Of a stretch of DNA of 52,350 nt, positions 3,471 through 39,176 are shown in pieces (the first letter of the stretch is position 1; every line of letters begins with the position of its first letter). The notes under the pieces are model-generated. The model saw only the letters and a list, made by a program, of their open reading frames with translations. It was not told the origin of the DNA and did no database searches. Position numbers and translations under genes: made by a program. The stretch is from an uncultured Nitrososphaerota archaeon. Its GTDB lineage: Archaea > Korarchaeota > Korarchaeia > Korarchaeales > Korarchaeaceae. The stretch covers positions 1-52,350 of the forward strand of contig CAZUBM010000011.1 of NCBI GenBank assembly GCA_964618805.1, written 5' to 3'.

Positions 3471-3757
3471 CTCTCCTCCAACTCCTTCAGATATCTCTTT
3501 CTTCTCTTCTCTCTTTCTTTGATCTTTCTCAGAAAGGCCCACTCCTTCTCAGCAGCATGTTCTTCTCTCAGCATCTCCATGCCTTTTATCTCTAGGAGCA
3601 TTGACAGTTCTTCTTTTGTTAGCCCATCTTTAGATGACTTAAGTCTGAGTAACTTCTCTATTATCGCCTGACGGGCAACCTCCGACCAGTTTATCTCCTT
3701 ATACTTCCTCATAAGCCTATATATGTCTTTAGGTATGCTCAGTGTTATATTTGTCAT
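3467..3757 (-). CDS. RHH-like antitoxin (VapB-type)
   Basis: MTNITLSIP...INWSEVARQAI. Translationally coupled to the PIN gene. Confidence 0.8.
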   Translation of the reverse strand: MTNITLSIPKDIYRLMRKYKEINWSEVARQAIIEKLLRLKSSKDGLTKEELSMLLEIKGMEMLREEHAAEKEWAFLRKIKEREKRRKRYLKELEER

Positions 3758-3933
3758 ATGTGTTATAAATAAATTATGTATTTTATAAGTCTTGATAGAC
3801 ATAGGAAACAAAAAACTCGAATCTTTACCCACCGAACCCTCCTCAGGGCTATTATAACATGCATTCCTTCAATGCCTGTTGAATGAAATCAGCGCATTTT
3901 ATAAATCTAGGAAAAGCTAATATAGAGATAAAA

Positions 3934-5178: not shown

Positions 5179-5322
5179 TGACCATATCCTAGTAAATTGT
5201 AAAAGTGCATTAGAAGAGCTACGGAGTTCTTCTGAAGTTTTTAGTACCATCTCAATATCTGACAAATTTTGTTTTCAAAAAAGTCTTTAAACCCCTTAAT
5301 TCAATTATTTGTGAGATTGCAG

Positions 5323-5907
5323 ATGAGTTCTAAGAAAGATGCCTATTCATCAATATTCTTGGCTTTGAAACATCCTGTTAGGAGGAGGATTTTGATGATG
5401 TTAAGGGACTCACCACTAGCATACACTGAAATCCTGAATAAGTTGAAGGTTGAGACGGGATTTCTTAACTATCACTTGGAGAAGCTTGACCAACTCATCA
5501 AGAAAGATAAAGACGGCAAATATTCTCTAAGTGAATTAGGAGAAGCTGCTCTAGCACTGATCAAAAGGATAGAACCATCTTCTAAAAGGAGTCCTGCACT
5601 TGCTGCTTTTTTTAAGCTCAAGTTAAAGCCAGAACACATTTATCTTGCTATAATCTCTTTTTTGCTGGCCTCAAATGCTTACTTGGCATATTTTGCATTC
5701 TTTCACACGGCCAAATCCTCAGATGAGTTTCTTCAGATCAAGCCGCATGCTGAGAGGATGAGGGTAAGCGGAATAATCATTCGAGAGTTGGGGGAGCCCT
5801 GGAATGTGCTTGTTTATTGGCCCGAATGCATTTACCTTGAATCAGAAAAATGGGCTGCAGAAGATGTCCAGATGCGGACCATATACGTTATGATTGAAAA
5901 CCCATAA
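5323..5907 (+). CDS. ArsR-like winged-HTH regulator with transmembrane segment
   Basis: ALKHPVRRRIL...LNYHLEKL...YSLSELG followed by a hydrophobic helix. The C-terminus may be truncated. Confidence 0.75.
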   Translation: MSSKKDAYSSIFLALKHPVRRRILMMLRDSPLAYTEILNKLKVETGFLNYHLEKLDQLIKKDKDGKYSLSELGEAALALIKRIEPSSKRSPALAAFFKLKLKPEHIYLAIISFLLASNAYLAYFAFFHTAKSSDEFLQIKPHAERMRVSGIIIRELGEPWNVLVYWPECIYLESEKWAAEDVQMRTIYVMIENP

Positions 5908-6037
5908 GACAGAACAATTAAGGAGTGAGAGAAGAGAACAACTAAGTTTGTGCCTAGTTCTATATTTTTGAGAAATATTGTGAACTCTTAAAGATGGAAA
6001 GACTTAAGAGCTGATCCTCCTTCTATTCAAGAAACAA

Positions 6038-6382
6038 ATGTCCATGGAAATAGTTACACCAGAGAGAGCCATAGAACTAGTCAAGGAAGGCAAAACAGGC
6101 TTCCTGATGACATTAGTTTATTGGATGAACGATCCAAACGCTCCCGTAAACCCTGAAGATTTAGGAATAAGGGTCCAGACGGGAGGACTAACACTTTCCC
6201 CTGAGCATACTCCAAACATCTCCATCATTAGAAACATAATAGTTACTGAGGCTTACTTTCCCAAAGAGCTGACCCCAGCTCCCTTGAGAAAGAAGGAGAA
6301 TAGGATGGAGTGGGGAGGCTATAGGGTGTCTGTTAGAATACCTAAGTGGGCAATCATGGCAATATTGTTCCCTAGAGATTAG
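6038..6382 (+). CDS. Hypothetical protein
   Basis: Clean 114-aa ORF with host-like codon use and no recognised motif. Confidence 0.6.
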   Translation: MSMEIVTPERAIELVKEGKTGFLMTLVYWMNDPNAPVNPEDLGIRVQTGGLTLSPEHTPNISIIRNIIVTEAYFPKELTPAPLRKKENRMEWGGYRVSVRIPKWAIMAILFPRD

Positions 6383-6556
6383 TCATTTATGAGGCATGGT
6401 TCTGAAATCTTGTTTCTTCCACAAACATCTACTCAACTCAAACTGGAGAGAATAATTTAGGTGATGTTACTTGCGTTAATTGCCTGCCAGGTAATCGATT
6501 GTATTTAGGATGTCGCAAACTGTAAGTGCTTCATTTAAAATTTCGCACGTTTTATA

Positions 6557-7288
6557 TTGCTGGTGGTAATCCTGGAAGAAGAAACGAGTAAGGCAAGGAA
6601 GGAATCTGTGCATCAGCAGGCTGAGAGGCACGCTCTTTATATCATAATTGACGCCGTCTTCGGCTTGGCTCTTGGCCTTGGGGCATTCTCTCTTACAGAT
6701 ATACCTCTGAGGAATGGGCATGATTTATTCCTAGCTGTTTCTTTCTTCGCTTTTTCGTACTTCGTCATCTCAATGTCTTGGATGGCCCTCCGCCCTTTCT
6801 TCAAGGAGTACATCGTCTATGGACCAATAAACGGGATTTTATTCCTCACGGGATTCTTCATCGCTATCTTGCCCGTATCGATGCGCTTGATAATGATGCA
6901 ATACTTAAAGCAGACTTCTCCAGATATCCTCGAAGCCTCGCTCATGCTCTATCCCCTCTGCATGGCAGTAATAAGCATGAACATGGGGATCTTCAGTTTT
7001 GCCTTTTCAAAACAGAGTTGGAAAACAATTCCTTGGGATGATTTCACTCATCTTTTGTCAGAAGGGGTGGGATCCTTCGTAATGGGTATTATATTCTTAA
7101 TCTCTGTTTTCATACCTCTTGAGAGAACTCTGGCAGACGTGCTACCATTTAACATCCTCTCAAAGCTGCCGCCTGTAGAGTGGATCCCTTTTAAGGTAGC
7201 CTTTTGGTTCCTAGGAGGAATAGCCCTAGCTGGACCGGCAACTCTAATAACCAATCTTATCCTGTGGTTTAGAAAACCGAAGGACTAG
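6557..7288 (+). CDS. TMEM175/DUF1211-like six-TM membrane protein (divergent K+ channel-like)
   Basis: IIDAVFGLAL resembles FSDGVFAIA, followed by SYFVISMSW and FIAILP helices in TMEM175 order. Start codon uncertain. Confidence 0.55.
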   Translation: MLVVILEEETSKARKESVHQQAERHALYIIIDAVFGLALGLGAFSLTDIPLRNGHDLFLAVSFFAFSYFVISMSWMALRPFFKEYIVYGPINGILFLTGFFIAILPVSMRLIMMQYLKQTSPDILEASLMLYPLCMAVISMNMGIFSFAFSKQSWKTIPWDDFTHLLSEGVGSFVMGIIFLISVFIPLERTLADVLPFNILSKLPPVEWIPFKVAFWFLGGIALAGPATLITNLILWFRKPKD

Positions 7289-7747
7289 CACAACTCAATG
7301 CTGATATTTTTATGCTTAGGATATCTTAGCTCTGATTCTCAGGATACCAAAGATTTGCAATAATCTGTTCTGGTTTTCGACTCTTTAATTCTTATTTCAC
7401 TGGTTCTCATTTATTTCTTGAAAAGATGGTTAATTTAGGAAGTTTCCTCCGAATAGTGAAGGGAAGGATAAGACTTCTTCCAGGAGCACAAAGAACTGAT
7501 TGGTGAACTAATTTCCTCAGGAATAAAGCTAGAACCTGTTCTCTCCTCAAGAAGGAAATGGTTGAATTAGTAATCAGAGAAACCGGGTTGGGAGGCGTTT
7601 TCGATTTTATAATCGCTCAAGAATATGTTGAGCGTCTCAAAACCCAACTTCTCCAAGATCCCCTCGCTGCTCCTTCCTCTGGACATGAGTTTTGGTGTGT
7701 GCGAGTGGAAAGCCCATACTAACAAAACTCTCAATCAAACGCTTTGT

Positions 7748-8944
7748 TCAGCTCTCTTCCATCATCTTGAGTCCGTCTACGGGCAATGGACATAAAGGTA
7801 GAGAAGAAGCGTTCTTAACAAGTGAGATCAGATATCTGTCTGTTTCAGTAAGGGTAACTCGAGAAAACGGATAAATCTCTATTTCTTCTTCTCCCTTTTT
7901 CCTGAAAACAAAATGCACGAAGCCTCCAGTTAAGGGGTCAGTTGAAGTACGGATGATATATAGTATCCCTTTTATTCTAGCATGAACTTCAGAACCCTTT
8001 CCTACTTTCTTTAGAGTAGCAGTGTGACCTTCTTCGATGAGATAGCATGCCAAATTGCTGGAAACATATACAGCACCAGTTTCATCTTCCTGACCCCTTA
8101 GTTCCTTTGGGATCTCTGGTTTTCGACCTAATTGTACGTCACAAAGGGCCATGGCGTATGCAGCTTGCATACGGTACATACCTACTTGATAGCATCGTTT
8201 GAAGTACTCCTTTGCTTTTTCGTATTTAGCTTCCTTGTACATGGAGGCACCAGCATTGTAGAGTTCTACTGGTGACATTTCCTTCAGACTGGGAAGTTTC
8301 GAAGGCGTTTCCACAATCCCTCTTCCGATCCGGAAACTATTGATGATATACTCGAAGACAGGCTCCCAATACTCGAAGTCGCTTTCAGGCGATTCGCAGA
8401 TAAATTGAAAGGTCACGCCAACGCCAAAATAGGTGATACTTTGTTCCTTTGTCCTACCTTCTCGGCTGTCATAACTGTAAACAAGCTTTACAGCAGGCTT
8501 TCCTAAGAGCTGGATCTCCTCTTCTGCGTAGAAGTGTAAATTTGGAAAAGAACGGATGAGCTCGTCCTTTGCTAACTCAATGAACTCTTGAGGGTTGGTT
8601 GGTTGTTTTCTCATTCTCCCGTCTGGTCCAACGAACATCATGGTGTATTTTGACAAGATTTCTCTTCCCTGTACATTGACGATGAACCCGGTCTTCCCTC
8701 TACCCATTTCAGAAGCAACAGCTATAGGAATAATCCACGGATCTGCTGACTCATTCTCTAAAAAAATCCCCCAGTTTCCCGGATATTCTATTGAGAAGTT
8801 CCATCTCTCGCTGTAATAATGCTTGATCTCTAAGCCAGAGCTATATTTTGCTTTTAACTCTTTGTATGTTTCCTCTGTGATTTTTCCTTCATGGAAGGCC
8901 TTTTCTAGCTTCGCAAGTTTCCTATATGCCTCTATTTCAGACAT
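7748..8944 (-). CDS. Multidomain protein: SHOCT-like N-terminus, PsbP/DcrB-like domain, TPR, unknown C-terminal domain
   Basis: KLEKAFHEGKITEETYKELKAKY; FSIEYPGNW...VFEYIINSFRI; LYNAGASMYKEAKYEKAKEYF. Confidence 0.6.
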   Translation of the reverse strand: MSEIEAYRKLAKLEKAFHEGKITEETYKELKAKYSSGLEIKHYYSERWNFSIEYPGNWGIFLENESADPWIIPIAVASEMGRGKTGFIVNVQGREILSKYTMMFVGPDGRMRKQPTNPQEFIELAKDELIRSFPNLHFYAEEEIQLLGKPAVKLVYSYDSREGRTKEQSITYFGVGVTFQFICESPESDFEYWEPVFEYIINSFRIGRGIVETPSKLPSLKEMSPVELYNAGASMYKEAKYEKAKEYFKRCYQVGMYRMQAAYAMALCDVQLGRKPEIPKELRGQEDETGAVYVSSNLACYLIEEGHTATLKKVGKGSEVHARIKGILYIIRTSTDPLTGGFVHFVFRKKGEEEIEIYPFSRVTLTETDRYLISLVKNASSLPLCPLPVDGLKMMEES

Positions 8945-8974
8945 AGATTTTCACATTCTTTGATTTATTTTAAG

Positions 8975-8989
8975 GATTTCTAGCGCGCG
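8975..8989 (+). repeat. Variant copy of the GATTT(C)TAGCGCGCG intergenic motif
   Basis: GATTTCTAGCGCGCG, in the same orientation as the copies at 36785 and 51342. Confidence 0.55.
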
Positions 8990-9627
8990 TGGCAAAGAGG
9001 TGAAGTACAGAGCCAATCGTTTTGGGTTTTCCCTTAGAAAGGCCTTAAAACAGGTAGGGATTTTGATGGAGTAAGCATAATTCTGATTATCTTAATTTCC
9101 TTATCTATGTCAATGTTTGGCTTGACAATTAATAGAGCTATGAGTATTTTGGGATTTGGGAATTTGTAGGACTCATTTTTGGTGTCACTTGATTGATGAT
9201 TGACGTTTTAAGATATGTAGCTCTTTATAGGGAAAACAAATACAAATCCCCAAGTTGAAAGCTATGAAAAAAGGAGAGATCCCCTCCTTGGACTTGGTTG
9301 CCTTTTGGGCTATACTCGTTATATAAGTAAGCTCAAAAGTTTTCATGCCCAGATCCAAGAATTAGAAATAAAGGTGTGGTAGCAGAAGCGATCAAGACCA
9401 ACTAGCACACACAAAAGGTTATCTTAACCAAATACGCCAGATCCTAAACCTTTACCTTTTCTTTGCTAGGTACGGCGTTAAATTCCAAATAGTATCTATC
9501 CGTTTATTTAACAAGGATCTGTTGCTGTAAAACGCTACTTCACTTTGAAATTATAATATCCTTTTCGCATCATACCTCCTGAAATGTCACATTCATGCTT
9601 AAAAGCTTCAAAATGTATAAATTAGGA

Positions 9628-10263
9628 ATGGAAGCAGGAATTCGGGAGAAGATAAGAAAGCTTGAAGATGCCCTAATTGAAGGGAGAATTACAGAGAAAA
9701 CATACAAGAAGTTAAAAGCGAAGTATGAAGCGGAGTTATCGAGATTGGGTGAGGTATCCAAGCCTAGCAAGGTTTCGGAGGCAGGTCCTGAAACGGTAGT
9801 TTCTGGAGGTACTGAAGCAGCCTTTAAAAAAGGATTGGAGCTAGTTAATGGATATTTGGGGCGCATTGATCCAAATCTTCCGCTGTTAAAATTAAAACCC
9901 GGTGAAAACTCATCTTCATCATTAATTCAGCATGCGGGGGCAAAATTGCTGGTGATTGTAGGAGTAGAGGAAGGATTTATCACTGTTACCTTAGCAGCTC
10001 ATGTCTGCAACGAGCCTAAGAACGTAAGAGATAGGGATCTCGCTGGTTTTTACAGACGCCTCCTATTTCTTAATGCTGCAAATGTCACACTGACAGGGAC
10101 AATTCATTTTGGTCTCGTTGAGGGCTTAGGGATATTTTTAATGTGGTCACGTCCAATAAGAGATCTCGATTTCACAGAGTTTAAAGAAGCACTTGATCTT
10201 CTAGCAGGTAAAACACTGTTGTTTTTCGTACTCCTTCGAAAAGAGTTCAACTTTATTGGCTAG
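9628..10263 (+). CDS. SHOCT-like domain fused to YbjN/CesT (T3SS-chaperone-fold)-like domain
   Basis: KLEDALIEGRITEKTYKKLKAKY; FYRRLLFLNA...HFGL...RPIRDLDFTEFKEAL. Confidence 0.55.
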   Translation: MEAGIREKIRKLEDALIEGRITEKTYKKLKAKYEAELSRLGEVSKPSKVSEAGPETVVSGGTEAAFKKGLELVNGYLGRIDPNLPLLKLKPGENSSSSLIQHAGAKLLVIVGVEEGFITVTLAAHVCNEPKNVRDRDLAGFYRRLLFLNAANVTLTGTIHFGLVEGLGIFLMWSRPIRDLDFTEFKEALDLLAGKTLLFFVLLRKEFNFIG

Positions 10264-10451
10264 AATAACCAAAAGTAAGTGGAATCCTTTGTTCATATTG
10301 CGGAGTTTGTTGAAAGGCATCTAGTAAGAGTATAAATAAAGAGATGGAAAACTGAGGATATGCTTTCGTCCACTTTAGTTTCAACGCTTTCATCGCTTTC
10401 TAAACAAGCACTTATATCTACATACGATTGATCAACACAGAAAGAGTGAAC

Positions 10452-11825
10452 ATGAGTAAGAGGTCTATAATTTTAGTTTTCTTAATGCTAGGAGTGCTAG
10501 TAGTTCCTACTACGAGAAAATTGACCGGAAAAATGCTGAGATTCTCCGAGACTAGGGAATGGGAGGTTCAAGGGGAAGCCAGAAGGGTTACGGCGATTGG
10601 TTGGAACGGAGAATACTGGCTTATTGGTACGTCAGACGGTTGGATAGTTAGACTTGATGGCTCTAACTTTAGCGTTGTAGGCAGAGTTGACATAGAGGGA
10701 GTCCATTCGCACATAATCTGGACTGGAAAGTACTGGTTGGGGACAAGTGGGGTCTACTATTGTTCGGCCTTCGCTTATGATGGAGAGAAGTTGGTGGAAC
10801 TCAGATATAGATCTTTCAACGAGATAGTTAAGGTAAGCTACGCTTCAGACAAGTGCGTGCTTGTGAATCAGGTGCCATACTCAGATAACTTTTCAATACT
10901 CACATGGAATGGTGAATCCATTAATGTATTGGTTGAAGATGCGATAGACCTCCTATCGTGCAAATCCAATTTCAACTACGGGTACATGCAACTCAGGCTA
11001 GAGCTGGTATCAAACGGAAGCTCTTGCTTGATATATTTATGCAGTGAGCCGTCCGCAACCCACAAACTACTTCCAGTGCTGCAGGGTAAGCTGTGTCATA
11101 AACTCTACTCTTATGACGGACAGAAACTGGTTAACTTGAGCTGGAGCCTTCCTAAGAAAGCATTTCTGTGGAGGCTACCCATCCCTCAGGGACAACCCTA
11201 TATCTGGAAGGAAATTTCAAATGGCACGCACTGGCTTTCATTTTCCTCTGATGGCAAGCTACTTTTCTTCAATGGAAGGGAGTTCCAAGAAGTTAAAGTG
11301 GATGCCAACCTTTCCCAATATTGGGAAGAAGTGAGGTCAAATTGGGGCCCCGAATGGAAAGGAGATTACTGGCGCATGCATTGGAATTGGAACGGAGAAT
11401 ATTGGTTAATCTCATATATAAGACTCATTTCGAATATACCTGCAGAGGCATGTTTGCTTAAGTATGATGGAAAGAGAGTAGAATTGGTCAAACCTCCAAG
11501 AGGCCTCTCTATAATAAATTTCAGGAAATCTAGATGGCCAGTTAACATAGGACAAGTCGTCTGGGGGGACGGAAGGTGGCTTATTGCTGCAAATAAGCGA
11601 TCTTCATTCTGGAGCCGTAGATGGGGGTATCTATTCAGTTTTGATGGGGAAAATTTTGAGGATTTAATGCCAGAACTTAACGAGGCAATAGTGCTTGCTG
11701 GCGGAGGCCCAGGAAGACCAAGGCCTCTCTTACAGGACATCCGTTTGTTAGCTGTTATAATTGGATTCCTGGGGCTGAGCATTGCATATCTCATGATATG
11801 CAGAAGCCTATCGCCGTCAAAATGA
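10452..11825 (+). CDS. Secreted, C-terminally anchored repeat (beta-propeller-like) protein
   Basis: N-terminal hydrophobic signal, repeated WNGEYWLI / YDG motifs, C-terminal TM. Confidence 0.7.
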   Translation: MSKRSIILVFLMLGVLVVPTTRKLTGKMLRFSETREWEVQGEARRVTAIGWNGEYWLIGTSDGWIVRLDGSNFSVVGRVDIEGVHSHIIWTGKYWLGTSGVYYCSAFAYDGEKLVELRYRSFNEIVKVSYASDKCVLVNQVPYSDNFSILTWNGESINVLVEDAIDLLSCKSNFNYGYMQLRLELVSNGSSCLIYLCSEPSATHKLLPVLQGKLCHKLYSYDGQKLVNLSWSLPKKAFLWRLPIPQGQPYIWKEISNGTHWLSFSSDGKLLFFNGREFQEVKVDANLSQYWEEVRSNWGPEWKGDYWRMHWNWNGEYWLISYIRLISNIPAEACLLKYDGKRVELVKPPRGLSIINFRKSRWPVNIGQVVWGDGRWLIAANKRSSFWSRRWGYLFSFDGENFEDLMPELNEAIVLAGGGPGRPRPLLQDIRLLAVIIGFLGLSIAYLMICRSLSPSK

Positions 11826-12078
11826 CACCAATCAATATGTGTTTGAGCACCAAGGCTTTTTCTCATATCTGTTCCGAAAATCAGTTTCATATAGGAAGTT
11901 TGCTGGAAAGCGTATTAGAAGAATAATGTATTTGCATATTACTTTCTAAGGAGGTTTTTGTAGAGTTAGAAAGTTATGACGACCATTTTAGCTTGATTTC
12001 AAGTTCGGACAAAGTTCTTATCTTTAGGCTCTAAAGCGTTTCTCAATCAAGAAATAATTTTTGAAATTATAAGCGCCT

Positions 12079-12839
12079 ATGCAATTGATGCCAAAACATG
12101 CGATTGTTCGAGAGCCAAGCAATAGTTACGCTTATTGTATCTCGAGGCATCCTATGCGCCACACCATAGATTTATCCCTTGCCAGAAGACAACACGAGAA
12201 ATACTGCAGGATTTTGTCCGAATTAGGATTAGAGATAATTCATCTTCCTAGGGACGATCTTCATCCGGATTCTTGCTTTGTAGAGGATAATGCAGTAACA
12301 TACCGAGGTAAAGCTCTAATATGTAGAATGGCGAAAAAGAGCCGCCGTGGAGAGGAAAAAGCAGTTCTGGAAGTTCTAAAGGAGTATATGCCCGTTAAAA
12401 GGGCCATTTCTCCTGCAACAATCGAGGGCGGGGATGTTCTTCATCTTGAGGATCACCTGATATGTAGAGTAACCCAGAGAACCAACGAAGAAGGAGTGAA
12501 TCAACTAAGGAAATGGTTCGGGGTTGAGGCTAAGACAATCTTGGACAAAAGCATCGTTCACCCCAAAAGCTACATCTCATACCTAGGGAATGAGGTGATC
12601 ATTTCAACGAGAAAGTACGCTGATCATCCTGTTCTTGAAGGGTTCAGAGTACTCGTAGTGCCAGAAGACGAGGCCTATGCAGCTAACGCTCTTGCCATTG
12701 ATGAAGTCGTCTTGATGCTAAGGGATTTCCAAAATCCGAAAAGATAGTAAGGGGAGCTGGATATGAAGTTATCACATTGAATGTGAGCGAATTTAAGAAG
12801 TGTGAGGGAGCACTAACATGCCTCTCTCTGCTATTTTAA
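12079..12839 (+). pseudogene. Dimethylarginine dimethylaminohydrolase/amidinotransferase family, frameshifted
   Basis: PDSCFVED, EGGDV, AANAL. A frameshift near 12718 separates the C-terminus ...EFKKCEGALTCLSLLF (catalytic Cys), which ends at TAA 12839. Confidence 0.85.
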
Positions 12840-13187
12840 TGACGTGAATCACGCTGATTTGTGCTATTAGGCTCTTGGCATATGCTCTCAGCGAATCAAT
12901 CATAGTGCTACTTTGATCTTCAATCTAGGACACATATAATTTCGGTTTTCTTACACGGTAATCATTTAACATTTTATCAAACATTATTTGGAATCGCTCT
13001 TCTAAAGTTTAAAATAAACGACTGTTTACGCACAGTGAGAGTTGAAAATTGACTAAAAAGGAGTAAAAGTAATATTTAGCTTTTTATCTGATCACTTATC
13101 TCCTTAATTACGGGTTTAATTATCCTCTCAGTTTATTAAGTGAGTAAAAGCACAAAGATATTAGGGCATTACCTCTTAGGTGAATGT

Positions 13188-13478
13188 ATGGAGAAGGCAG
13201 AATCTGAAGTTCTTAAGAAATTAATATCTATCTTAATAAAGCATGGAGCTAAGAGAATAGCTGTCTTTGGATCTTATGCAAGGGGCGAGGCTAACTATGA
13301 CAGCGATCTGGATGTTTTAGTGGAATTTTCGGACGTTAAAAGTCTTACAGATCTTGTCGGAATAGAAATGGAGCTCTCAGAAGCCCTAAATGTTAAAGTC
13401 GACCTTTTGACTGAAAGATCAATAAGCCCTTACCTTATTGACAGGATTAAGAAAGAAGCAAGAGTGATTTATGGATGA
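13188..13478 (+). CDS. Minimal nucleotidyltransferase (MNT) antitoxin
   Basis: FGSYARGE..DSDLDVLV, KVDL. Confidence 0.9.
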   Translation: MEKAESEVLKKLISILIKHGAKRIAVFGSYARGEANYDSDLDVLVEFSDVKSLTDLVGIEMELSEALNVKVDLLTERSISPYLIDRIKKEARVIYG

Positions 13479-13821
13479 GAAAAGATGATCTTATCTACAT
13501 ACAACATATTCTAGATGCTATTGACCTAATTGAGGATTACACAAGAGGAATCGGTAAGAAGGGCTTCCTGTCAAGCAGAATGATCCAAGATGGATCAGAA
13601 GAAGAGAAATTGAAATTATTGGGGAGGCAGCAAAAAGAGTCTCAGATGAAATGAGAGGTAAATATCCCGAAATTCCGTGGAAGAAAATCGCTGGTATGAG
13701 AGACAAGCTAATACATGGTTACTTCGGCGTAGATCTAGAAGCAGTATGGATTACCGTTAATAGAGACATCCCGGAGTTGAAGAAAGCCATAAAAAACATA
13801 ATGAAAGCTGAAAGAAGGTGA
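13475..13821 (+). pseudogene. HEPN DUF86 ribonuclease toxin, frameshifted
   Basis: MRKDDLIYIQHILDAI..., frameshift near 13595, then [29 protein letters not shown] (RX4H motif). ATGA-coupled to the MNT gene. Confidence 0.85.
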
Positions 13822-13880
13822 AAGGCTTTAGAAGCCAAAAAAATTCATAGTTTTATGTGGAACCTCTGTGCTTTTTGAAG

Positions 13881-15041
13881 TTAGGGCAAAGTAAAGGTTA
13901 TCATTAGGGCTACCAACTCAAGAAATGTTGATGTAAAGAAAGGAGCCATCAAGTTGCTTGAGGCCATAAAACCAGCAAAGGAAGGTCCTAGCGTGGCAAA
14001 AATGCTTGTAAAGGTGCCCTCAATTCCTATTGCCTTTGACCTGTCTTCTTCGGGAAAAGAGTCCATGGTGTAGGCCAGTAGCCCTGGAACGAACAGTGGG
14101 TTTGTTGAAAGGGCCATGAAGGCTAAAGGGAAGAATACCCTGTTGAAGGCAGAAAGAAACAGAAGTAGAAAGTACAGAGTTGAAATAACATAAGTTCCCA
14201 CATACAGCCACTTTCTCCTCACTTTGTCGGCAAGAAAGCCCCCTGCTAAAGAAATAAGTGCCCTTGTTCCGGACCTCAGCGAGTATATTGAGAAAATCTG
14301 CCCGTAAGAAAGACCTACCTCCGATCCAAGCATTGGAATAAAGGAGGCTGCTCCAAAGGCAAAGGCATCTAAGGACTTTATCGCGCAAAACCTAACCAAG
14401 ACAGACTTGTTCCTTATAGCCTTAAGATCCGCGAAAAACGAGAACTTTGTTCGTCTTGTTGCTTTAATCCTCCTTTTCCTTACCATCGTTAAGATTAAGG
14501 CGCTGATGAGGATAAGGGGCATACCAGCTAAAAAGAACGTTTTTCTGAGACCGTACTTCCCCGAAATTAAAGCGCTCACACCTGTTCCAGCAAAGCCGGC
14601 CATGTACCCGAAGAAGTGCATGATACCAAATGGCAGACCCTTTCCTTTCCCAGCTTCAGCTATCATTGGCATGGCTGATATGTAGGAGACGGTCCCAAGC
14701 GCTGAGATAGCTAAGAGTAAAATCAGAAGATCTATAAAGTCATCAGCAAAGTATATAGTGGCCGTGAGAACTCCTTGAGAAAGTAGTCCTATAGCTAGGG
14801 GAATTCTCCGGTCTACTCTATCGGCAATTACGCCTGTTGGTATCCTAACCGCTGTACTCAGAGCTCCTGCAGCCGAAACCATGGGCCCATAGAGGGCAGC
14901 AGGTATGTCAATTTCCTTTACATAGAGAGGGACCGAAACGCCTAATATCGATCTAGAGAATGTGTAAAAGAAGAAGAAAGAGTAAAGGATCACCAACTCA
15001 GGAGAAAAGATCTTTAGCGGTACTTTTACATAATTTCTCAA
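13881..15041 (-). CDS. MFS transporter
   Basis: About 12 TM helices, with motif A in both halves (GVIADRVDRR, GFLADKVRRK). Confidence 0.85.
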   Translation of the reverse strand: MRNYVKVPLKIFSPELVILYSFFFFYTFSRSILGVSVPLYVKEIDIPAALYGPMVSAAGALSTAVRIPTGVIADRVDRRIPLAIGLLSQGVLTATIYFADDFIDLLILLLAISALGTVSYISAMPMIAEAGKGKGLPFGIMHFFGYMAGFAGTGVSALISGKYGLRKTFFLAGMPLILISALILTMVRKRRIKATRRTKFSFFADLKAIRNKSVLVRFCAIKSLDAFAFGAASFIPMLGSEVGLSYGQIFSIYSLRSGTRALISLAGGFLADKVRRKWLYVGTYVISTLYFLLLFLSAFNRVFFPLAFMALSTNPLFVPGLLAYTMDSFPEEDRSKAIGIEGTFTSIFATLGPSFAGFMASSNLMAPFFTSTFLELVALMITFTLP

Positions 15042-15342
15042 ATGTCAGGACCTCAAGATCCTGCTTCCAGTTTTGACATCAATTCGATTAAGGAACTTAA
15101 AAACTCATTAAACCCAAGTAATTTTTTAGGTAAGCCTTTTATCGAGGTTCTGTCTCATCCCTAACAGCTTCTTCATCTCCTCACTATTCCTTCCTTATTT
15201 TGTAATCAGAGGGTAATGCAATTAATAGAAATTAAAAGCCCAATATTAGGGGTTGTTACATCGCCTTATTTGGTCTGACTGGAGCAAAGGGAGAAACGGA
15301 TTGGATAAGCCTTCTTAGTAATAAAAAGATCAATTTTATATA

Positions 15343-15364
15343 TGTAGTAACTTAAAGTACTACA
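15343..15364. promoter_or_regulatory. Inverted-repeat operator between the TATA box and start of the AbrB antitoxin gene
   Basis: TGTAGTA-N8-TACTACA directly after TTTTATATA and 2 nt before ATG. Confidence 0.65.
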
Positions 15365-15366
15365 AC

Positions 15367-15600
15367 ATGAAAGAAAAGGAATTTATCATTAAAGTAACCA
15401 GAAACGGCCAGGTGACAATCCCTAAGAGATTTAGGGAAATTTTAAACATAAACGAAGGTGATTCTCTTTACGTAAGACTTGAAGGAGACAGGGTGATCTT
15501 GACCAAGCCTGGCATCCCGGAGCCTGGCGAGCCTGTTGGGGAGGACGAGTACAAGAGGATAATTGGGCTTCTTGAGGAGGAGAGGAGAAAGTGGTCTTAG
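15367..15600 (+). CDS. AbrB/MazE-family antitoxin
   Basis: KVTRNGQVTIPK..REILNINEGD. Confidence 0.9.
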   Translation: MKEKEFIIKVTRNGQVTIPKRFREILNINEGDSLYVRLEGDRVILTKPGIPEPGEPVGEDEYKRIIGLLEEERRKWS

Positions 15601-15986
15601 TATTGGACACGCGCTTCCTGCTAACCCATACCTTTCCTCCAACCGAGGATGATAGAAGGAAGCTGAGGGATTTCTCCTCGAAGATAGCGAGAGAAGGCCT
15701 TATCATACCACCGGTCGTGATAGCGGAGTTCATGAGGTTGGCTGGACCAAGGATTGGGAGAGAAGCAGCAGAAGCGAGGCTGAGGCTATGGATCAGCACC
15801 TGCGCTAAAGTACCAGAGGTTGGCGAGGAGGAATCCTTCATTGCTGGGAGAATGGCCCTATCTTACAGGAGGGTTCCGCTGGCCGACATCCTGATAGGAG
15901 CCGTTGCAAAATCCCTCCGCGCATCAGTTGTGAGCGATGATCCCCATTTCTTCGAATTAGGCGTCAAAACCCTTTGGTATAAATAA
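15591..15986 (+). CDS. vapC: PIN-domain (VapC) toxin
   Basis: LVLDTR, VIAEF, LADILIGA, VVSDDPHF. Overlaps the AbrB gene. Confidence 0.9.
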   Translation: MVLVLDTRFLLTHTFPPTEDDRRKLRDFSSKIAREGLIIPPVVIAEFMRLAGPRIGREAAEARLRLWISTCAKVPEVGEEESFIAGRMALSYRRVPLADILIGAVAKSLRASVVSDDPHFFELGVKTLWYK

Positions 15987-16086
15987 AGGGCGACACCCTT
16001 GCATCAGAGATCGCTTTATGAAGGACATCGATAACGGGGAGCTCGCGATATATCGCGTTTAAAATTGGTCTTTAGTTCATAAGCCT

Positions 16087-32007: not shown

Positions 32008-34656
32008 CTATGAGTCTGCCATCTTCTTCCAGGCAGCACTTGGTGGTGCTGAGGCCTTGGCTGGGAAGATCCTGGGTTTCATCCTTACGTTAACGGGGAA
32101 GGGGATTTCAGACGCCATCCCCCATATCATTGCTTCATGGTTCCTCAGAGACGGTAAGTAGTTCTTTATATCCCCTCCTCCCTCCGTGTAGGCAGCTATT
32201 GCATCTTGATCGTTCAAGTTCTTCAGCCTAAAGCACACTACGGTGTTACATTGGGATATGACTGCCTTTGATACGTAAGCGGGTCTTTGCGTGACCACTA
32301 TGAAGCCCACGTTGTAACCTCCTGACTGGCTTATCGCCTCAATTAGAGTCGAATAAACCCCTGAGTCGAAGGGATTTCCTACAAGTGGAGCGTTTCTTTC
32401 GGGGACTAAATATTGGGCCTCCTCAAGCACCACTATTAGGGCGAAGTCCCCCTTATCCCTTCTCGAAATTGCGTATCTAACTATCTTCCTTATCATCTCC
32501 CTTACCGCTAGGAACTGATCGTCGTAATCTGCGTCAACGCTGAAGTCGAGCACGATTATAGGAAACTTCCTGACAGCCTCTATTATGTCATGACCCATTC
32601 CTCTTGGCCTAAGGAACCTTCCCGATCGTCTTAGCTTTATCTGAAGCTGACTAATCAGCTTCTTCCTCTCCCTCACATCCATGGCAATTGCAAGCTCCTT
32701 TGCCTTCTTAAGCAAGGCTTCTGGGCTTATCTCCCCCTCTCCTAAGACTTCTTCTGCAGCAAGCTCTACAAGGCTTCGAAGGGAGCCCCTATCTATCCCA
32801 AGCCTCCTCGATATGTCCTTAGGGGTTAAAGCTCCTTGCTTCGGCAAGAAGGTCCTGTAGTCAAATATGGCAGCCCCTTTCTTTGAAAGGATTGAGTATT
32901 CCCCCCTCTTATCGAGAACAAGAAACCTAGGTCTCGGATTTATCCTCTGAGAGTTCTCTATCAGGTTTAGGACGAAGGTCGAGTTGTGGACGAAGAAGCC
33001 GTTTGCAACGAAGTTCTCCCACCTCTCAACTGAGATGTCGTAAACGGGCTCCTCCCAGGGCCCTAGTTTCCTCACCTCAACTATCTTCTCGAACGAAAGG
33101 GATGGCATTGTAAGGAGCTTTAGGGCTTGATTTCCTCCTAGGAACTTAAGGACCGCAGTAATATCCTGAACGCTTACAAATTCTCCGTTCTCAATTCTCC
33201 TAAGCGAATCAGGACTTATCCCTGCCCTTACAGCGAACTCAAACCTCCACATTCCTCTTTTTATTCTCTCCCTCTTTATCACATCTCCTAGCTCTGGAAG
33301 GTGGTGGAACACCGGGCCTCCGTCGCTAGCTGTGTACTTCAAAGCCTGCTGGACCTTCTCCTCATCAAAAAGGATCCAAGCAGGGCCAACCCTTTCGGGC
33401 TCAAGGCCAAGGAGGGAGAGAGAACATGCAACCCTCATTGTCTCCGATGGATTTGAGAACATCACCCTGCTCCCGTCATAGGATTGATAGCTTATCCTCC
33501 TAAGGAATTCCTTCATTGCCCTCCTCTCCTCGCTTATTGGAAGGGTGATAAAGGAAGCTAGGCCCTGTTCCGCAATCATCCTCAGCTTTTGGTCCCTTAA
33601 GAGGAGGTAGTCCCTCAATATTTTTGCCTCAAGGCCTTTCTCTCTTGCTATCTCAACGAGCTTCTTATCTGGCCCATGAATTAGGACCTCATCCCCGACA
33701 ACCGACCCATCTGCAACAGCCGCGGCTATAAGCTCAGGACCGACCCCATCAGCCCTTTTTATTGGAGGAGGAGTTTCCAACGGGGAAACAAGCCAGAACG
33801 GGCCTCTCTTAAAGAGACTCCTTGGCTTAGCCTCTCTTAGCCTTAGGCCATCGAAGACCAAGAGGGAATGATCTCCAGTTACTAGAAGCCTCTTTCCCTT
33901 ATCAGTCCTTATCTCGTACATGCATTTTGATGGTTTATGCTTGTGAACAGCAGTTATTCTTGACCAGGTTGGTCTGAAGTTCCTTCTCTCAAGGCAGAGG
34001 GCGTAATACCTCCTTCCAAGCTCCTTAGTTCCCATCCCATTTCCAAGCAGCCTGTCTACGAAATCTCCTATTGGCTCAACTATAACCCTCTTCTCCTTTA
34101 CATCGTAAATCACTGTAATTGAGTCCCCTGAGACGCTCTTTCCTGACCTCGTCATCCCGGCAACGAAAGCATGGCCTCTGGCAAGGGAGTCAAGGTCCAG
34201 GTAGAAGTCTATATCGGAATCAGCAAGCTTTCCTATTGGAACCCTGTAGCCAGAGGTAGTTGATGAGAAGAACTCCCTCAAATCCTCCTTATCTGGCTTG
34301 AAGACTGGATCTGCGGTAGAGGGAGGGGCCTCAAGGCCCTTTATCCTCCCATCAATGGGGTCTCGATAGCCCAGGACCTCTGCGTTAGCAACTAGGTACT
34401 CAAGCTCCCCCTGAAATACGGGGACGAGGCCTGCAGAACTTGCAATTACTCCAGTACGGCCTAGATCCATCTCCTCATTCATTGAGGAGATGTCATAAAC
34501 CCTCAACAGGACAATTGGGCCTCCTTTCCCCCAGAAAGGATGCTCAACAGCATAAAACTGGCCCAGCTCTACTCTTTCTCCCCTCTTTATCACGAAGTTT
34601 ATCTTTCGGGGGGTAGAGCGAGAAATGACATATCCAACAACATTTTGCAACTTCAC
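32008..34656 (-). CDS. herA: HerA-family ATPase, intein-containing (about 497 aa after splicing)
   Basis: HAS-barrel-like N-terminus, Walker A GMTRSGK|ST, LDKRGEY, Walker B VVLEEAQ, TQRPA. Overlaps nurA. Confidence 0.85.
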   Translation of the reverse strand: MKLQNVVGYVISRSTPRKINFVIKRGERVELGQFYAVEHPFWGKGGPIVLLRVYDISSMNEEMDLGRTGVIASSAGLVPVFQGELEYLVANAEVLGYRDPIDGRIKGLEAPPSTADPVFKPDKEDLREFFSSTTSGYRVPIGKLADSDIDFYLDLDSLARGHAFVAGMTRSGKSVSGDSITVIYDVKEKRVIVEPIGDFVDRLLGNGMGTKELGRRYYALCLERRNFRPTWSRITAVHKHKPSKCMYEIRTDKGKRLLVTGDHSLLVFDGLRLREAKPRSLFKRGPFWLVSPLETPPPIKRADGVGPELIAAAVADGSVVGDEVLIHGPDKKLVEIAREKGLEAKILRDYLLLRDQKLRMIAEQGLASFITLPISEERRAMKEFLRRISYQSYDGSRVMFSNPSETMRVACSLSLLGLEPERVGPAWILFDEEKVQQALKYTASDGGPVFHHLPELGDVIKRERIKRGMWRFEFAVRAGISPDSLRRIENGEFVSVQDITAVLKFLGGNQALKLLTMPSLSFEKIVEVRKLGPWEEPVYDISVERWENFVANGFFVHNSTFVLNLIENSQRINPRPRFLVLDKRGEYSILSKKGAAIFDYRTFLPKQGALTPKDISRRLGIDRGSLRSLVELAAEEVLGEGEISPEALLKKAKELAIAMDVRERKKLISQLQIKLRRSGRFLRPRGMGHDIIEAVRKFPIIVLDFSVDADYDDQFLAVREMIRKIVRYAISRRDKGDFALIVVLEEAQYLVPERNAPLVGNPFDSGVYSTLIEAISQSGGYNVGFIVVTQRPAYVSKAVISQCNTVVCFRLKNLNDQDAIAAYTEGGGDIKNYLPSLRNHEAMIWGMASEIPFPVNVRMKPRIFPAKASAPPSAAWKKMADS
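32983..34137 (-). mobile_element. Intein (385 aa) in the P-loop, with degenerate LAGLIDADG and an internal XRE-type HTH
   Basis: GK|SVSGDS, VTGDHSL, AAVADG, IKRERIKRG..FAVRAGISPDSLRRIENG, VYDISV..NFVANGFFVHN|S. Confidence 0.92.
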
Positions 34657-36800: not shown

Positions 36801-36929
36801 GAATTACCTGAGTCCACTCGTAAACTATGTAGGGTCTTCTTTAACCTGTACATCCAGATTTTTTCCCTTGAACGCTTCGAGATCTTCCTCTGTCAGTATT
36901 CTTATCTCTCTAAGGGAAATCTATGAACC

Positions 36930-37640
36930 ATTGTCTTCTTGATGAAAAGAGGAGTGTCCCTTCTGCAAAGCTTCAAGCCTTTGGCCTTTATCTCTTCGTT
37001 TTTTAGCCTTCCGAGGTATCGAGAGGGAACCCCAGTTCTCCCTGAAACATCGTTGAAGAATGCAACCCATGCGTAATCCGCTTCCACCTTGAGGGTATAT
37101 CCTGTCTCCTCCTCTATAGCCCTAATCAGCCTTTGAACTTCGAGCCAGTCCTTTGAGCCTACTTGAATGAAGAGGGAGTCCACTAAAGCGTGCAGAACCC
37201 TAAAGCCCATCCTTTCTGCAACCAACATTGCCCTAAACAGCGTATCCCTTGCAAGAGCTGTGACACATTCATAAGCCTCTATGCTTCCAAACCTCGCGTT
37301 TCTATACCCTAGATAACCGAAACAAGCAACAAGGATCCATTTAACTGCTATCTGAGCCGAATCATATCTTTTAGAACCTGATTTAGCAGAGTTCGCAAGG
37401 GCCTTCAACTTTGCCCTCCTCTCAACGAGTTCTCCAACTACCTCGGCTACGAGACCCCTACGTCCAAAGGAGATGGTGTGCCCAACCTCTGGAACCTCTA
37501 TCTTTAGGCCAGAGCACTCCAAATCGTTCACGGTTTCTGGACTTATGTTGTTCTTCGCTATTATCGTGGGAAATAGGAAGTTGAAGTCTATTTGGACGAC
37601 GTTCCAGTAAATTCCTGGCTTAGGTGTAAGGACTATGCCT
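36930..37640 (-). pseudogene. polB2: Internal fragment of family B DNA polymerase PolB2 (Dpo2-like)
   Basis: GIVLTPKPGIYWNVVQIDFNFLFPTII..NISPETVN, KWILVACFGYLGYRNARFG, HALVDSL, RRDTP. Both ends are missing. Confidence 0.85.
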
Positions 37641-37668
37641 TATCAAGTGTTACTTCGGTTACTACAGG

Positions 37669-38664
37669 TTAGGCGAAATTGCTTCGGGGGGCTTGAAAAG
37701 AAAAAATCAAAATATAGCAAAATGTTATGGAGATGATGAATATGAAGAATCTCAAAATCTTAATTTTAGTCGGAATCTTAATTTTGACAGGGACAGGAAT
37801 TTGGCTTTCAATTCAAACTGAAAAATTAACTCCGCTAGAAATTTCTATTGGATCAGAAAAAGAAGAAAAACCAGAAATAACTTTAATTTCTGTTTATGAC
37901 AACTATCAAGTAAATCCTGATTTAACAACTGCCTGGGGTTTCGGATGTATAATAAAAACTCCTCAGGAGCTAATACTGTTCGATACCGGAGGAAACTCAG
38001 AAATTTTGCTTTCCAATATGGAAAAATTAGGTATCAATCCTGCCTCAATCAAGAAAGTAGTTATTTCTCATATTCATGGTGATCATGTGGGTGGATTAGA
38101 AGGTTTTTTAGAAAGAAACAGCAATGTTACTGTCTTTATTCCGAGTTCCTTTCCCCAATCTATTAAAAATATGATAACCCAAAAGGGAGCCAAACTTGTA
38201 GAAATTTCGGCTCCAGGGAAAATTTCTGATTTTGTTTACACGACCGGAGAACTTTATGGGCCTCCAAAAGAGCAATCCTTAATTATCGATTCAAAAAAGG
38301 GATTAGTTATTATTACGGGCTGTGCTCATCCTGGAATTGTGAATATTGTGAAGAAAGCTAAAGAATTGATGAAAAAAGATAAGCTTTATTTGGTTTTGGG
38401 AGGGTTTCACCATCCCCCTATATCGTGTGTTAAAGAATTTAAAGAATTGGGAGTAGAAAAAGTTGCACCATCTCATTGCACAGGTGATTTGGTCAGAGAA
38501 GCTTTCAAAAGGGAATATGAGGAAGATTTTATTGAGTACGGGGTAGGAAAGATAATTGAAATCGGATAAAAGGTTTCTCAAATTTCACTTTGCCTAACAG
38601 CGGATAAAAAGGAAATCAAAGATTTCCCCAAATTGCCTTCGGCAACTTCTTTTATATGCATACG
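37669..38664 (+). mobile_element. Integron-type gene cassette (single ORF plus attC), no integrase in window
   Basis: Starts at G|TTAGGC and ends with an attC whose R'' GCCTAAC is the exact complement. Sharp AT-rich composition shift at both ends. Confidence 0.8.
37727..38569 (+). CDS. MBL-fold metallo-hydrolase (COG1237-like) with N-terminal TM anchor
   Basis: LFDTG, SHIHGDHVGG, GCAHPG, GGFH, PSHCTG. Confidence 0.88.
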   Translation: MEMMNMKNLKILILVGILILTGTGIWLSIQTEKLTPLEISIGSEKEEKPEITLISVYDNYQVNPDLTTAWGFGCIIKTPQELILFDTGGNSEILLSNMEKLGINPASIKKVVISHIHGDHVGGLEGFLERNSNVTVFIPSSFPQSIKNMITQKGAKLVEISAPGKISDFVYTTGELYGPPKEQSLIIDSKKGLVIITGCAHPGIVNIVKKAKELMKKDKLYLVLGGFHHPPISCVKEFKELGVEKVAPSHCTGDLVREAFKREYEEDFIEYGVGKIIEIG

Positions 38665-38670
38665 TTCAGC
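38592..38670 (+). other. attC recombination site
   Basis: R'' GCCTAAC, 5-nt spacer, L'' ATAAAAAG, two internal hairpins (GGAAATC-AAA-GATTTCC; TTGCC-TTC-GGCAA), L' CTTTTAT, 8-nt spacer, GTT. Confidence 0.8.
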
Positions 38671-38687
38671 GTTGACCTTGATTTGAC

Positions 38688-39176
38688 TTGGAAGAACCCA
38701 GGAGTTTGGAGGAGCTTGGGAAAGAAGAGGTTGAGCTGAAGTTCATTTGTCCCGAATCAAAGGAACTTGAATTCCTTTTTCCAGAGTTCTACATGGAGTA
38801 CAGAAAATCTATACAATTCAAGGTTTATGACATAAGGGAGATCTTCTGCGAGAAGGTAAGAGCAATCCTAACCAGGAAAGGTTTCAAGGAAAGATATTTC
38901 GTAGATGCATACATGATCTCAAAGAAATTCAACTTAAGATATGAAGATCTGGAAGAAGAGACTTTGAGGAAGCTCAAGTTCATCTTAAGGCTATATTACA
39001 AATACAAAAGGAACCTGAATAATAAAGTTTCGATGTTAACCGTTGAAAACTTCCCATTCGGCTCTGAGAGATACTTACTCATAGAAAAGATAGATGAAGG
39101 GGATTTCCATTTATTCTTAAACAAATTTATGGTTTGGCTAAGAAAGTTGGCTAAGGCAGCCATAGCTTTCGCGTAA
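38688..39176 (+). pseudogene. 3' part of an AbiEii-like nucleotidyltransferase
   Basis: VYDIREIFCEKVRAILTR..RYFVDAY. The N-terminal catalytic GG/D-x-D region is absent. Confidence 0.65.

Follow-up and report, generated by a model that had tools for sequence, protein, structure and literature searches.

The 996-bp unit and its insertion site

The window, a stretch of 52,350 nt that represents positions 1 to 52,350 of contig CAZUBM010000011.1 from an uncultured archaeon of the Korarchaeaceae (assembly GCA_964618805.1), carries on its forward strand an inserted unit of 996 bp (37669..38664, +), which begins with TTAGGCGAAAT, contains a single open reading frame (ORF) for a metallo-beta-lactamase (MBL)-fold hydrolase and ends in a recombination site with a terminal G. 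We consider it very probable that an integron-type gene cassette has truly inserted here, at a secondary GTT site in the chromosome of an archaeon, without any visible integron platform. An earlier note, made from the sequence alone, had described a solitary integron cassette at this locus, and the 996-bp unit, the one MBL-fold gene, the site beginning 22 nt past its stop codon, the two hairpins and the G|TT boundary were all found in place upon reading of window positions 37300-39100. The left junction reads ACAGG|TTAGGCGAAAT, with the G at 37668, and the right junction is G|TT at 38664|38665. The 5′ end of the cassette (TTAGGCGAAAT, 37669..37679, +) is the travelling part of an R′ box, complementary to the R′′ box of the same cassette, and the R′ present in situ at the right junction (G|TTCAGC, 38664..38670, +) is chimeric, with the G derived from the cassette and TTCAGC from the target gene. 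As GTT stands at both junctions, strand exchange is shown, as read from these junctions, to lie within the GTT of the R′ box of the site, with the cassette keeping the G at its 3′ end. A repeat search detected no terminal inverted repeats of the 996-bp unit, no duplication beyond GTT and no hairpin at the left end, and the sole repeat involving an end of the unit (inverted repeat I14) pairs 37668-37677 with the R′′ region at 38589-38598. The unit had also been described as AT-rich, which is correct for its interior (GC content of 0.33-0.39, with 0.47-0.48 in the left flank) but is not specific to it, since the right flank has a GC content of 0.34-0.39.

A search of the same genome with window positions 37600-38720 found both flanks contiguous on contig C12, where C12:34326-34365 corresponds to window 37630-37670 and C12:34272-34328 to window 38664-38720, with an overlap of 3 nt. 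The left flank is a remnant of an AbiEii toxin gene (37630..37668, +), consisting of 13 codons (GLCLIKCYFGYYR) up to the junction G with 95% nucleotide identity to C12:34326-34365, and the right flank is a second remnant of this gene (38665..38739, +), with 24 codons (FSVDLDLTWKNPGVWRSLGKKRLS) followed by a stop codon and 88-89% nucleotide identity to C12:34251-34328; the insertion point is within the N-terminal nucleotidyltransferase motif region of the toxin. Across the site the C12 paralog reads TACTACAGG|TTCAGCGTCGACC, and the empty site ACAGG|TTCAGC that had been reconstructed from the window alone thus exists in an intact 301-aa AbiEii ORF, the product of which reads CLIKCYFGYYR|FSVDLDF over the empty site. 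The contiguity of the flanks in the C12 paralog fixes the boundaries of the unit without reference to any attC feature, and because the C12 gene is intact and full-length across the site, the interrupted form is the derived one. When the AbiEii flanks were compared with same-genus genomes, the only match was to the own C12 paralog, and no orthologous empty site was found. By eye, the target, located in AbiEii coding sequence, is unlike the family site or the attI-like site described below, and it is not a tRNA, as there is no tRNA in the window. The proposed insertion at a secondary site outside any array was thereby upheld, since the target is not an att site and the sites of this type in the own genome are solitary. 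The target had further been matched to GWTMW, and a secondary-site consensus of GWTMW/GNT is given in the portion available of a review (PMC4618277); the GTT of the target does fit, but as GTT is very common this is weak evidence alone.

The earlier note had named a chimeric assembly as a ground for rejecting the insertion, and both junctions were found to be bridged by Logan contigs of public runs at flank depth. In run X1 the bridging contigs have depths of 20 and 20.1, compared with 20-27 for the flanks. The left junction is covered by contigs of 142 nt (1 difference) and 399 nt (0 differences) from two runs (X1 and X2) of one vent sample, with the X2 contig at the flank depth of that run (3.3), and the right junction by a contig of 838 nt (0 differences) from run X1. 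The search for empty-site or circle-junction sequence suggested in the same note yielded only a joint that skips the 996 bp (37667 to 38664), seen in X1 (depth 26.5) and X3 (depth 4.3), which has the base of the C12 paralog at 38702 and is read as this paralog, and not as an empty C11 allele. Among the 21 public runs listed, no RNA data set was found to contain the sequence. Based on the comparisons above, the insertion is judged to be well supported.

The recombination site and its family

The R′′ box of the site, GCCTAAC (38592..38598, +), is located 22 nt past the stop codon of the MBL gene, aligns with the R′′ column of the site family, and, with 15 of 94 sites, is among the three R′′ types seen most often. 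The folded site body (38599..38663, +) has a main stem with its left arm at 38600-38611 and its right arm at 38649-38659. Read along the plus strand, a 5-nt spacer (AGCGG) between R′′ and 38604 is followed by ATAAAAAG (38604-38611), hairpin 1 (38612-38626), unpaired CCCAAA (38627-38632), hairpin 2 with the loop TTC (38633-38645), unpaired CTT (38646-38648), the return arm of the stem CTTTTAT (38649-38655), and finally an 8-nt 3′ spacer ATGCATAC (38656-38663), where the family consensus is CCGCAAAAC. This layout follows from folding and from covariation in the family. Rfam contains no attC family, and a scan of 37500-38800 against it at E<=10 gave seven weak matches, all far below the gathering scores, and none of these was on the site.

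In situ, the bottom strand of the site folds at -12.2 kcal/mol (z -2.08, a value equalled by 8 of 200 shuffles), and the top strand has a z of -2.14 (5 of 200 shuffles as good), so that the predicted in-situ fold is only modestly above shuffled sequence. The bottom-strand folding anticipated by the earlier note was therefore recovered but is modest evidence alone, and the case rests on comparative evidence. When the ends of the unit were joined in silico, the R box paired and the bottom strand reached -18.6 kcal/mol, versus -12.9 in situ. TTAGGC at the 5′ end of the cassette complements the R′′ GCCTAAC at four of four variable positions, compared with two of four for the R′ in situ, and the reconstituted R′ (GTTAGGC) agrees with the core form of R′′ RYYYAAC and R′ GTTRRRY with exchange at G|TT; the proposal that circularisation restores the R box was thus correct.

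The last ~110 nt of the unit match sequences on C18 and C50 of the same genome, as well as relatives from other phyla, with 88-95% identity. The sites of this family share a common plan, which consists of R′′ (nnnTAAC), one A, a stem of 11-12 bp, hairpin 1, CCCAAA, hairpin 2, CTT and the return strand of the stem, and which ends with about five unpaired bases and then G|TTAnnnGAAAT, present after most family sites. Model R1 found 22 sites in five genomes, some in arrays and several 0.4-1.4 kb apart on one strand, and the window copy scores 92.3 bits (E 9e-26) with a covariance model of the site family. A pattern search of a species-representative genome collection detected the 33-nt site core in 113 stretches, both bacterial and archaeal, with hosts including Methanophagales, Methanoperedenaceae, Altarchaeum and Aenigmatarchaeota among the Archaea, and WOR-3, Patescibacteria, Dehalococcoidia, Atribacterota and Spirochaetales (metagenome-assembled genomes [MAGs] L075, L080 and L106) among the Bacteria. 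Application of R1 to these 113 loci gave 169 matches at E<=0.001 in 100 loci, some of which are weaker opposite-strand echoes. Tandem arrays of 3-4 sites were present in many loci (L055, L089, L137, L066 and others), and nine sites were found on one contig of genome G036. In an alignment of 96 distinct sites, which was fitted to the model and hence is biased toward the structure, the main stem was 93.8% paired, 10 of its 11 pairs showing compensatory changes, and hairpin 2 was 97.5% paired with compensatory changes in all five pairs. The covariation score was 0.415, versus 0.107 in shuffles (0 of 500 reached the observed score), and all slid controls were at or below 0.087. A triloop caps hairpin 2 in 65 of 94 sites, with T-N-C on the top strand, and hence G-N-A on the bottom strand, in 48 of 94. 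In DNA, G-N-A triloops with a C-G closing pair have unusual stability, and a G-N-A triloop on the bottom strand fits a bottom-strand DNA fold.

As integron exchange takes place at G|TT, each integron cassette begins with TTRRRY complementary to its own R′′. This signature was examined with 94 sites in 39 loci (97 matches minus three opposite-strand echoes), which yielded 53 pairs of neighbouring sites on one strand, less than 4 kb from each other. At the cassette start, the variable four-base stretch following GTT was a perfect complement of the cassette's own R′′ in 23 of the 53 pairs, whereas the in-situ R′ of the same sites was perfect in 7/53 and the all-against-all control was at 10.6%; none of 10000 permutations reached 23, with a maximum of 17. 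Some of the 30 imperfect cassettes probably hide an undetected intervening site. These sequence patterns support the view that the site family behaves as integron cassettes.

The unpaired central spacer of attC sites is ~5/5-6 nt long. The description of attC by Cury et al. (2016, PMC4889954), in the portion available, gives as features a folded bottom strand, an R box, an unpaired central spacer, an L box containing extrahelical bases, and a terminal structure that varies. The site family resembles classical attC sites and the systems of IntI1 and VchIntIA in its RYYYAAC/GTTRRRY boxes, the exchange at G|TT with a chimeric R′, and a folded imperfect palindrome in which the structure is conserved and the stem sequence variable. 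The earlier note had called the site a canonical attC, a label that is not supported, because the body of the site forms a three-way junction in which CCCAAA and CTT are conserved and unpaired, and its spacer is 5/8 nt in the window copy. In the family consensus a 1x5 internal loop lies between the R box and the stem, its longer side being on the R′ arm, and the terminal structure consists of a conserved junction of two hairpins with invariant CCCAAA and CTT; no bases of the site could be assigned as extrahelical. The very high cross-domain sequence identity of the family site is a further difference from classical attC.

The site core (window 38611-38667) has summed contig depths from ~740 to 16,000 in four hydrothermal-vent runs (X1-X4) from three samples, whereas the flanks have depths of 4-27 in the two runs that contain them, and loose contig ends at the site core run on into the consensus sequence CCGCAAAACG|TTAGGCGAAAT. 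A very large number of different cassettes bearing the site type of the window copy circulate in the vent samples.

Integrases, cargo gene and host genome

In genome G032, an array of family sites is located directly downstream of a 349-aa tyrosine recombinase gene in the same orientation, and contains a CfrBI-type restriction-modification cassette and then a 311-aa ORF, with one site after each; this integrase gene is the only full-length Xer-like gene found in G032. A tblastn search with the G032 integrase detected homologs in 13 of the 113 loci, with 10/13 upstream of an array and co-oriented with it, and 3/13 divergent and of a shorter subtype. The shorter integrases (L154, L094 and L090) are 40-43% identical, lack the N-terminal extension, and are divergent as in the classical integron layout, so that there seem to be two platform architectures for one site family. 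The array integrases are shared across phyla at 40-65% identity, and many have an extra N-terminal segment of ~70 aa. Five further loci contain C-terminal integrase fragments only (43-80% identical to the query), and three translated hits (two more on L107 and a second on L069) resemble, by eye, recombinases of other kinds. Directly past the integrase stop codon, an attI-like site was present in 4/5 loci examined (L033:4388-4538, L098, L069 and L131), formed by two palindromes of the TATATCCGAAC..GTTCGGATATA type with CCAAAT or a variant in between and the end ..AG|TT, and followed in 2/4 loci by the usual cassette start TTnnnnGAAAT. The CCAAAT motif is common to the attI-like site and the cassette sites.

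Eight complete or near-complete integrases, seven from array loci plus the G032 query, were scored against NCBIfam. None reached the cut-off of 265 bits of the IntI model TIGR02249, and all scored best with NF040815 (recomb_XerA_Arch), three of the eight above its cut-off. The best PDB match of the array integrase was VchIntIA (2a3v) with 161 bits, versus 150 for XerA, and its identity to IntI1 amounts to 33.7%. A stretch of 60 residues in VchIntIA corresponds to 20 in the array integrase, and 41 IntI1 residues of the IntI-specific domain, including the ALER block, are absent from all five aligned integrases. By sequence similarity we regard the integrase as IntI-related and not as a canonical IntI, which leaves the earlier description of the cassette as IntI-mobilised unsupported. 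Family integrases thus differ from classical IntI in the 41 missing insertion residues and in being mostly co-oriented with the array. They share with the XerA and XerCD resolvases the best match to NF040815, the simple two-domain tyrosine recombinase design and, in the catalytic part, the length of XerA, but differ from these in being located beside arrays and an attI-like site and not dif, in often having ~70 aa extra at the N-terminus, and in moving between phyla and domains with the arrays.

Two further observations were made on integrase loci. L107 contains three genes or gene fragments for tyrosine recombinases close to family sites; two belong to another subtype and one of the two is frameshifted, a layout that recalls recombinase-in-trio elements. 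A Chryseobacterium sp. plasmid from a cultured host (NZ_CP041688.1; L166, 6971-11217) encodes an N-terminally extended integrase with 40.7% identity, followed by five co-oriented small genes, with one weak site hit (21.7 bits) between two of these.

Integrons of Archaea were reported from 75 MAGs by Ghaly et al. (2022, PMC9668308), "excluding all singleton attCs", and according to the available portion of that paper attI is immediately downstream of intI and the IntI-specific domain is present. In this portion, the likeness to our system extends to arrays in archaeal MAGs, sites common with bacteria, attI past the integrase and signal-peptide enrichment, and the nearest bacterial relatives given are atypical Spirochaetota integrases, while the site family described here was also found in Spirochaetales MAGs. 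The two data sets differ in that singletons were excluded there, so that secondary-site insertions are not described in that portion, and in that the IntIs reported have the IntI-specific domain, which the integrases beside our site family lack. As the site family may overlap with the set of PMC9668308, the finding of a missing domain may or may not conflict with what is given there.

In the own genome of the window, represented by an assembly that is 93.7% complete, the search for intI proposed in the earlier note returned a best TIGR02249 match of only 91.6 bits versus the cut-off of 265, no attI-like motif was found, and the window contained no integrase gene near the unit, the sole ORF of which is the MBL gene; the absence of a platform is provisional given the completeness of the assembly. 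The best relative of the array integrase in this genome, with 35% identity, is encoded on contig C4 by an intein-bearing XerA-like gene; the gene is contained in a 702-aa open frame, which is suggestive of the intein. A broader model (R2) identified five sites in the own genome, none within 4 kb of another and without any array. One of these belongs to a second solitary cassette (C12:49896-50651; L156), which begins G|TTAGCAGAAAT right at the stop codon of what by eye is a methyltransferase gene, contains small membrane-like ORFs and a complementary R′′ (TGCTAAA), and has a terminal family site of 63 bits. Past this cassette, there is another cassette-like start (TTATCGGAAAT) without a site of its own, followed by an apparent integrase remnant. 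For the solitary cassettes on C12 and C18, no usable empty sites were found in the fragmented assemblies G001-G004.

The cargo gene of the window cassette (37727..38569, +; stop codon at 38567-38569) matches PF00753 with an E of 1.3e-11 and 45.2 bits, versus a cut-off of 22.7. By eye, the probable true start is the ATG at 37742, with GGAG upstream, and an N-terminal hydrophobic segment suggests that the protein is probably exported or membrane-anchored. The MBL protein family is very large, as 6365 of 8000 scored database proteins matched at E<=1e-20; the best 120 of these are 74-100% identical, and some of these 120 are named from bacterial and archaeal phyla. A tblastn search of the fetched loci with the MBL protein detected a relative with 80.6% amino acid identity at L055:3358-4098, located between the sites 3168-3262 and 4124-4219 of a four-site array, with sites of the same family as the window copy. 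This cassette is 958 bp long and begins G|TTAGGCGAAAT like the window copy. Similarly, locus L085 from an Aenigmatarchaeota MAG contains the 3′ end of an MBL gene (82%) and, after it, a near-identical site with the end CCGCAAAACG|TT. The best MBL paralogs in the own genome have only 39% identity, which would fit a foreign origin of the MBL gene. These paralogs are at C18:40675-41640 (L157) and on C50 (L158), one of them being followed by a family site with a degenerate R′, and C50 also contains a family site without the TAAC box and a 50-nt palindromic site of the GCCTAACAG...CTGTTAGG type. Functional assignments of the MBL protein as beta-lactamase, RNase Z or anti-Pycsar Apyc1 were rejected, with no NCBIfam beta-lactamase or RNase Z model near its cut-off and Apyc1 at 19.8 bits versus 50 among NCBIfam/Pfam scores far under cut-off, and the label of methanopterin-pathway synthase, given to relatives in one JGI source, appears unlikely given the N-terminal membrane segment.

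The neighbourhood of the unit is a patchwork of gene fragments. Downstream of the right remnant, a distal ORF for the AbiEii C-terminus (38688..39176, +) is in another reading frame; the Pfam assignment to AbiEii was made on this ORF (PF08843, E 4.2e-6, profile positions 117-224 of 238), and BLASTP gave 37% identity over 123 aa to the C12 paralog. On the other side, a pseudogene fragment of a family-B DNA polymerase (36902..37633, -; PF00136, E 6.2e-12, profile positions 116-317 of 453) shares 73% nucleotide identity with the full copy found at C13:2288-2996; the match stops at window 37633, where the fragment adjoins the left AbiEii remnant in a head-on fusion (37627-37633). This fragment lies outside the cassette, and is the mark of an older rearrangement. 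Elsewhere in the window there are a HerA-type helicase gene with an intein and a helix-turn-helix insert, located beside NurA (32008-34656, -), and an archaeal-type GlmM-like gene with intein-like matches (51-2495, +). A partial SSU rRNA hit on C27 matches the archaeal model, but as this model gave hits in all bacterial controls too it is uninformative, and the archaeal assignment rests on the placement of relatives and on gene content (the HerA-NurA pair, the archaeal-type GlmM and the inteins).

Proposed capture of the cassette

We propose as the likely explanation that an integron-type cassette was captured from elsewhere via its folded bottom strand at a GTT site, with an IntI-related, XerA-like integrase as the cognate enzyme. 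The unit would be a gene cassette with one promoter-proximal ORF, for the predicted exported MBL-fold hydrolase, followed by a site that folds as single-stranded DNA. A circular cassette would have come out of an array located either in a different cell or on an element that has since disappeared, after which the folded bottom strand of the circle would have recombined with a double-stranded GTT site of the chromosome, a reaction known in bacteria as attC x attG. The catalysing tyrosine recombinase would be encoded away from the unit, and, with less certainty, the cognate enzyme would be the IntI-related, XerA-like integrase without the IntI-specific insertion that is encoded upstream of arrays beside an attI-like site. 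Which enzyme acted we infer.

Several points weigh against this explanation. The empty site is a paralog and neither an allele nor an ortholog, and no circle junction or true empty allele was found among the Logan contigs of public runs, which as contigs lose rare variants. The target is a mosaic pseudogene, of which only 13 + 24 codons match the paralog, and later rearrangement is certain. The site departs from textbook attC geometry, and the window copy in turn departs from its own family in the 3′ spacer, as it ends ATGCATACG|TT where the L085 site ends CCGCAAAACG|TT, with four stem pairs lost compared to the consensus. Given this drift of the 3′ spacer, the site in the window may be decaying and the cassette perhaps no longer mobile. 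Finally, the platform could lie in the missing part of the assembly, and the link of integrase and array rests on other genomes, mostly on MAG contigs.

The same capture could have been catalysed by a canonical IntI that has the IntI-specific domain, supplied for instance by a bacterium living alongside or by a plasmid present only transiently. IntI1 recombined 8/9 archaeal attCs tested at frequencies like those of the bacterial control (PMC9668308, portion available) and inserts cassettes at GWT genome sites (10.1101/2022.09.11.507474, portion available), and the GTT of the target fits such sites. We nevertheless regard an IntI of this kind as improbable, since all eight array-associated integrases stayed below the 265-bit cut-off and scored best as XerA-type, the five aligned integrases lack 41 residues of IntI1, and no IntI was found in the own genome. 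Catalysis by the host chromosome-dimer resolvase XerA, which would take the folded site as its substrate, would agree with the best matches of the array-adjacent integrases to the archaeal XerA model NF040815, with the intein-containing XerA-like gene of the own genome, and with the array-adjacent gene being the only full-length Xer-like gene in G032. However, the host XerA is only 35% identical to the array integrase, and the movement of the array integrases with their arrays across phyla (40-65% identity), together with an attI-like site of their own, argues for a dedicated enzyme, making the resolvase quite unlikely to have acted here.

Origins other than cassette capture were also considered. 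A non-autonomous transposon, either a hairpin-ended element of the IS200/IS605 type or a miniature inverted-repeat transposable element (MITE) with a 3-bp GTT duplication, would share with the unit the subterminal hairpin structure, the insertion beside a short fixed motif and GTT at both junctions. This is highly improbable for a unit that has neither terminal inverted repeats nor any structure at its left end, its only end-related repeat pairing the 5′ end with the internal R′′, and for a site family that is associated not with a transposase but with a tyrosine recombinase and an attI-like site, in head-to-tail arrays carrying the R′/R′′ signature. There might also have been no insertion at all, with the C12 paralog having lost 996 bp or the junctions being an assembly artefact of a repeat-rich metagenome; the summed depths of the site core of ~10^4 in vent metagenomes do invite misassembly, and the empty form in the contigs is the paralog. 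Against this, an intact AbiEii ORF of full length runs through the site in the C12 gene, the bridging contigs (142, 399 and 838 nt) have 0-1 differences and are each at the flank depth of their own run, and the boundaries of the cassette coincide exactly with the G|TT of the family, so that we give the absence of an insertion next to no credence.

The proposed capture of an integron-type cassette by an IntI-related, XerA-like integrase has its closest known counterpart in the Bacteria, where single cassettes outside integrons (SALINs) and their IntI-catalysed insertion at GWT "attG" sites are known (Loot et al., 10.1101/2022.09.11.507474, portion available). The window event is comparable to a bacterial SALIN at an attG site, and the system as a whole is a variant of the classical integron. 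As in SALINs formed by attC x attG recombination, there is a single cassette and site in an ordinary gene at a GWT triplet, with no integrase or second site nearby and a target unlike attC or attI. The differences are that the host is archaeal, that the insertion is a natural one with an empty-site paralog, that the site and the likely integrase are not classical, and that the event is known here from sequence. It is possible, though we hold this only tentatively, that the site family, together with its integrase, represents an integron lineage in its own right that crosses the domains, which would lack the IntI-specific insertion long held essential, have a conserved three-way-junction site in place of the classical extrahelical bases, and seed cassettes into platform-less archaea at plain GTT sites. 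A limited literature search found no papers on arrays tied to integrases without the IntI-specific insertion.

How far integrons extend into Archaea has so far been deduced solely from arrays in MAGs, single sites having been set aside because they might be false positives. The single site described here marks a real insertion, with base-exact boundaries, an empty-site comparison and a genome without a visible platform, and suggests that cassettes can carry genes into archaeal chromosomes without the usual docking platform. Cassette traffic could thus add genes directly to archaeal chromosomes, and can also interrupt genes, as with the toxin gene of a toxin-antitoxin type in this case. For integron biology, this raises the testable question of whether the IntI-specific insertion is needed to recombine folded sites, for which the Chryseobacterium plasmid could serve as an experimental handle. 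If the site family and its integrase do form a separate lineage, the window would contain the first natural, base-resolved archaeal case of platform-independent cassette capture.

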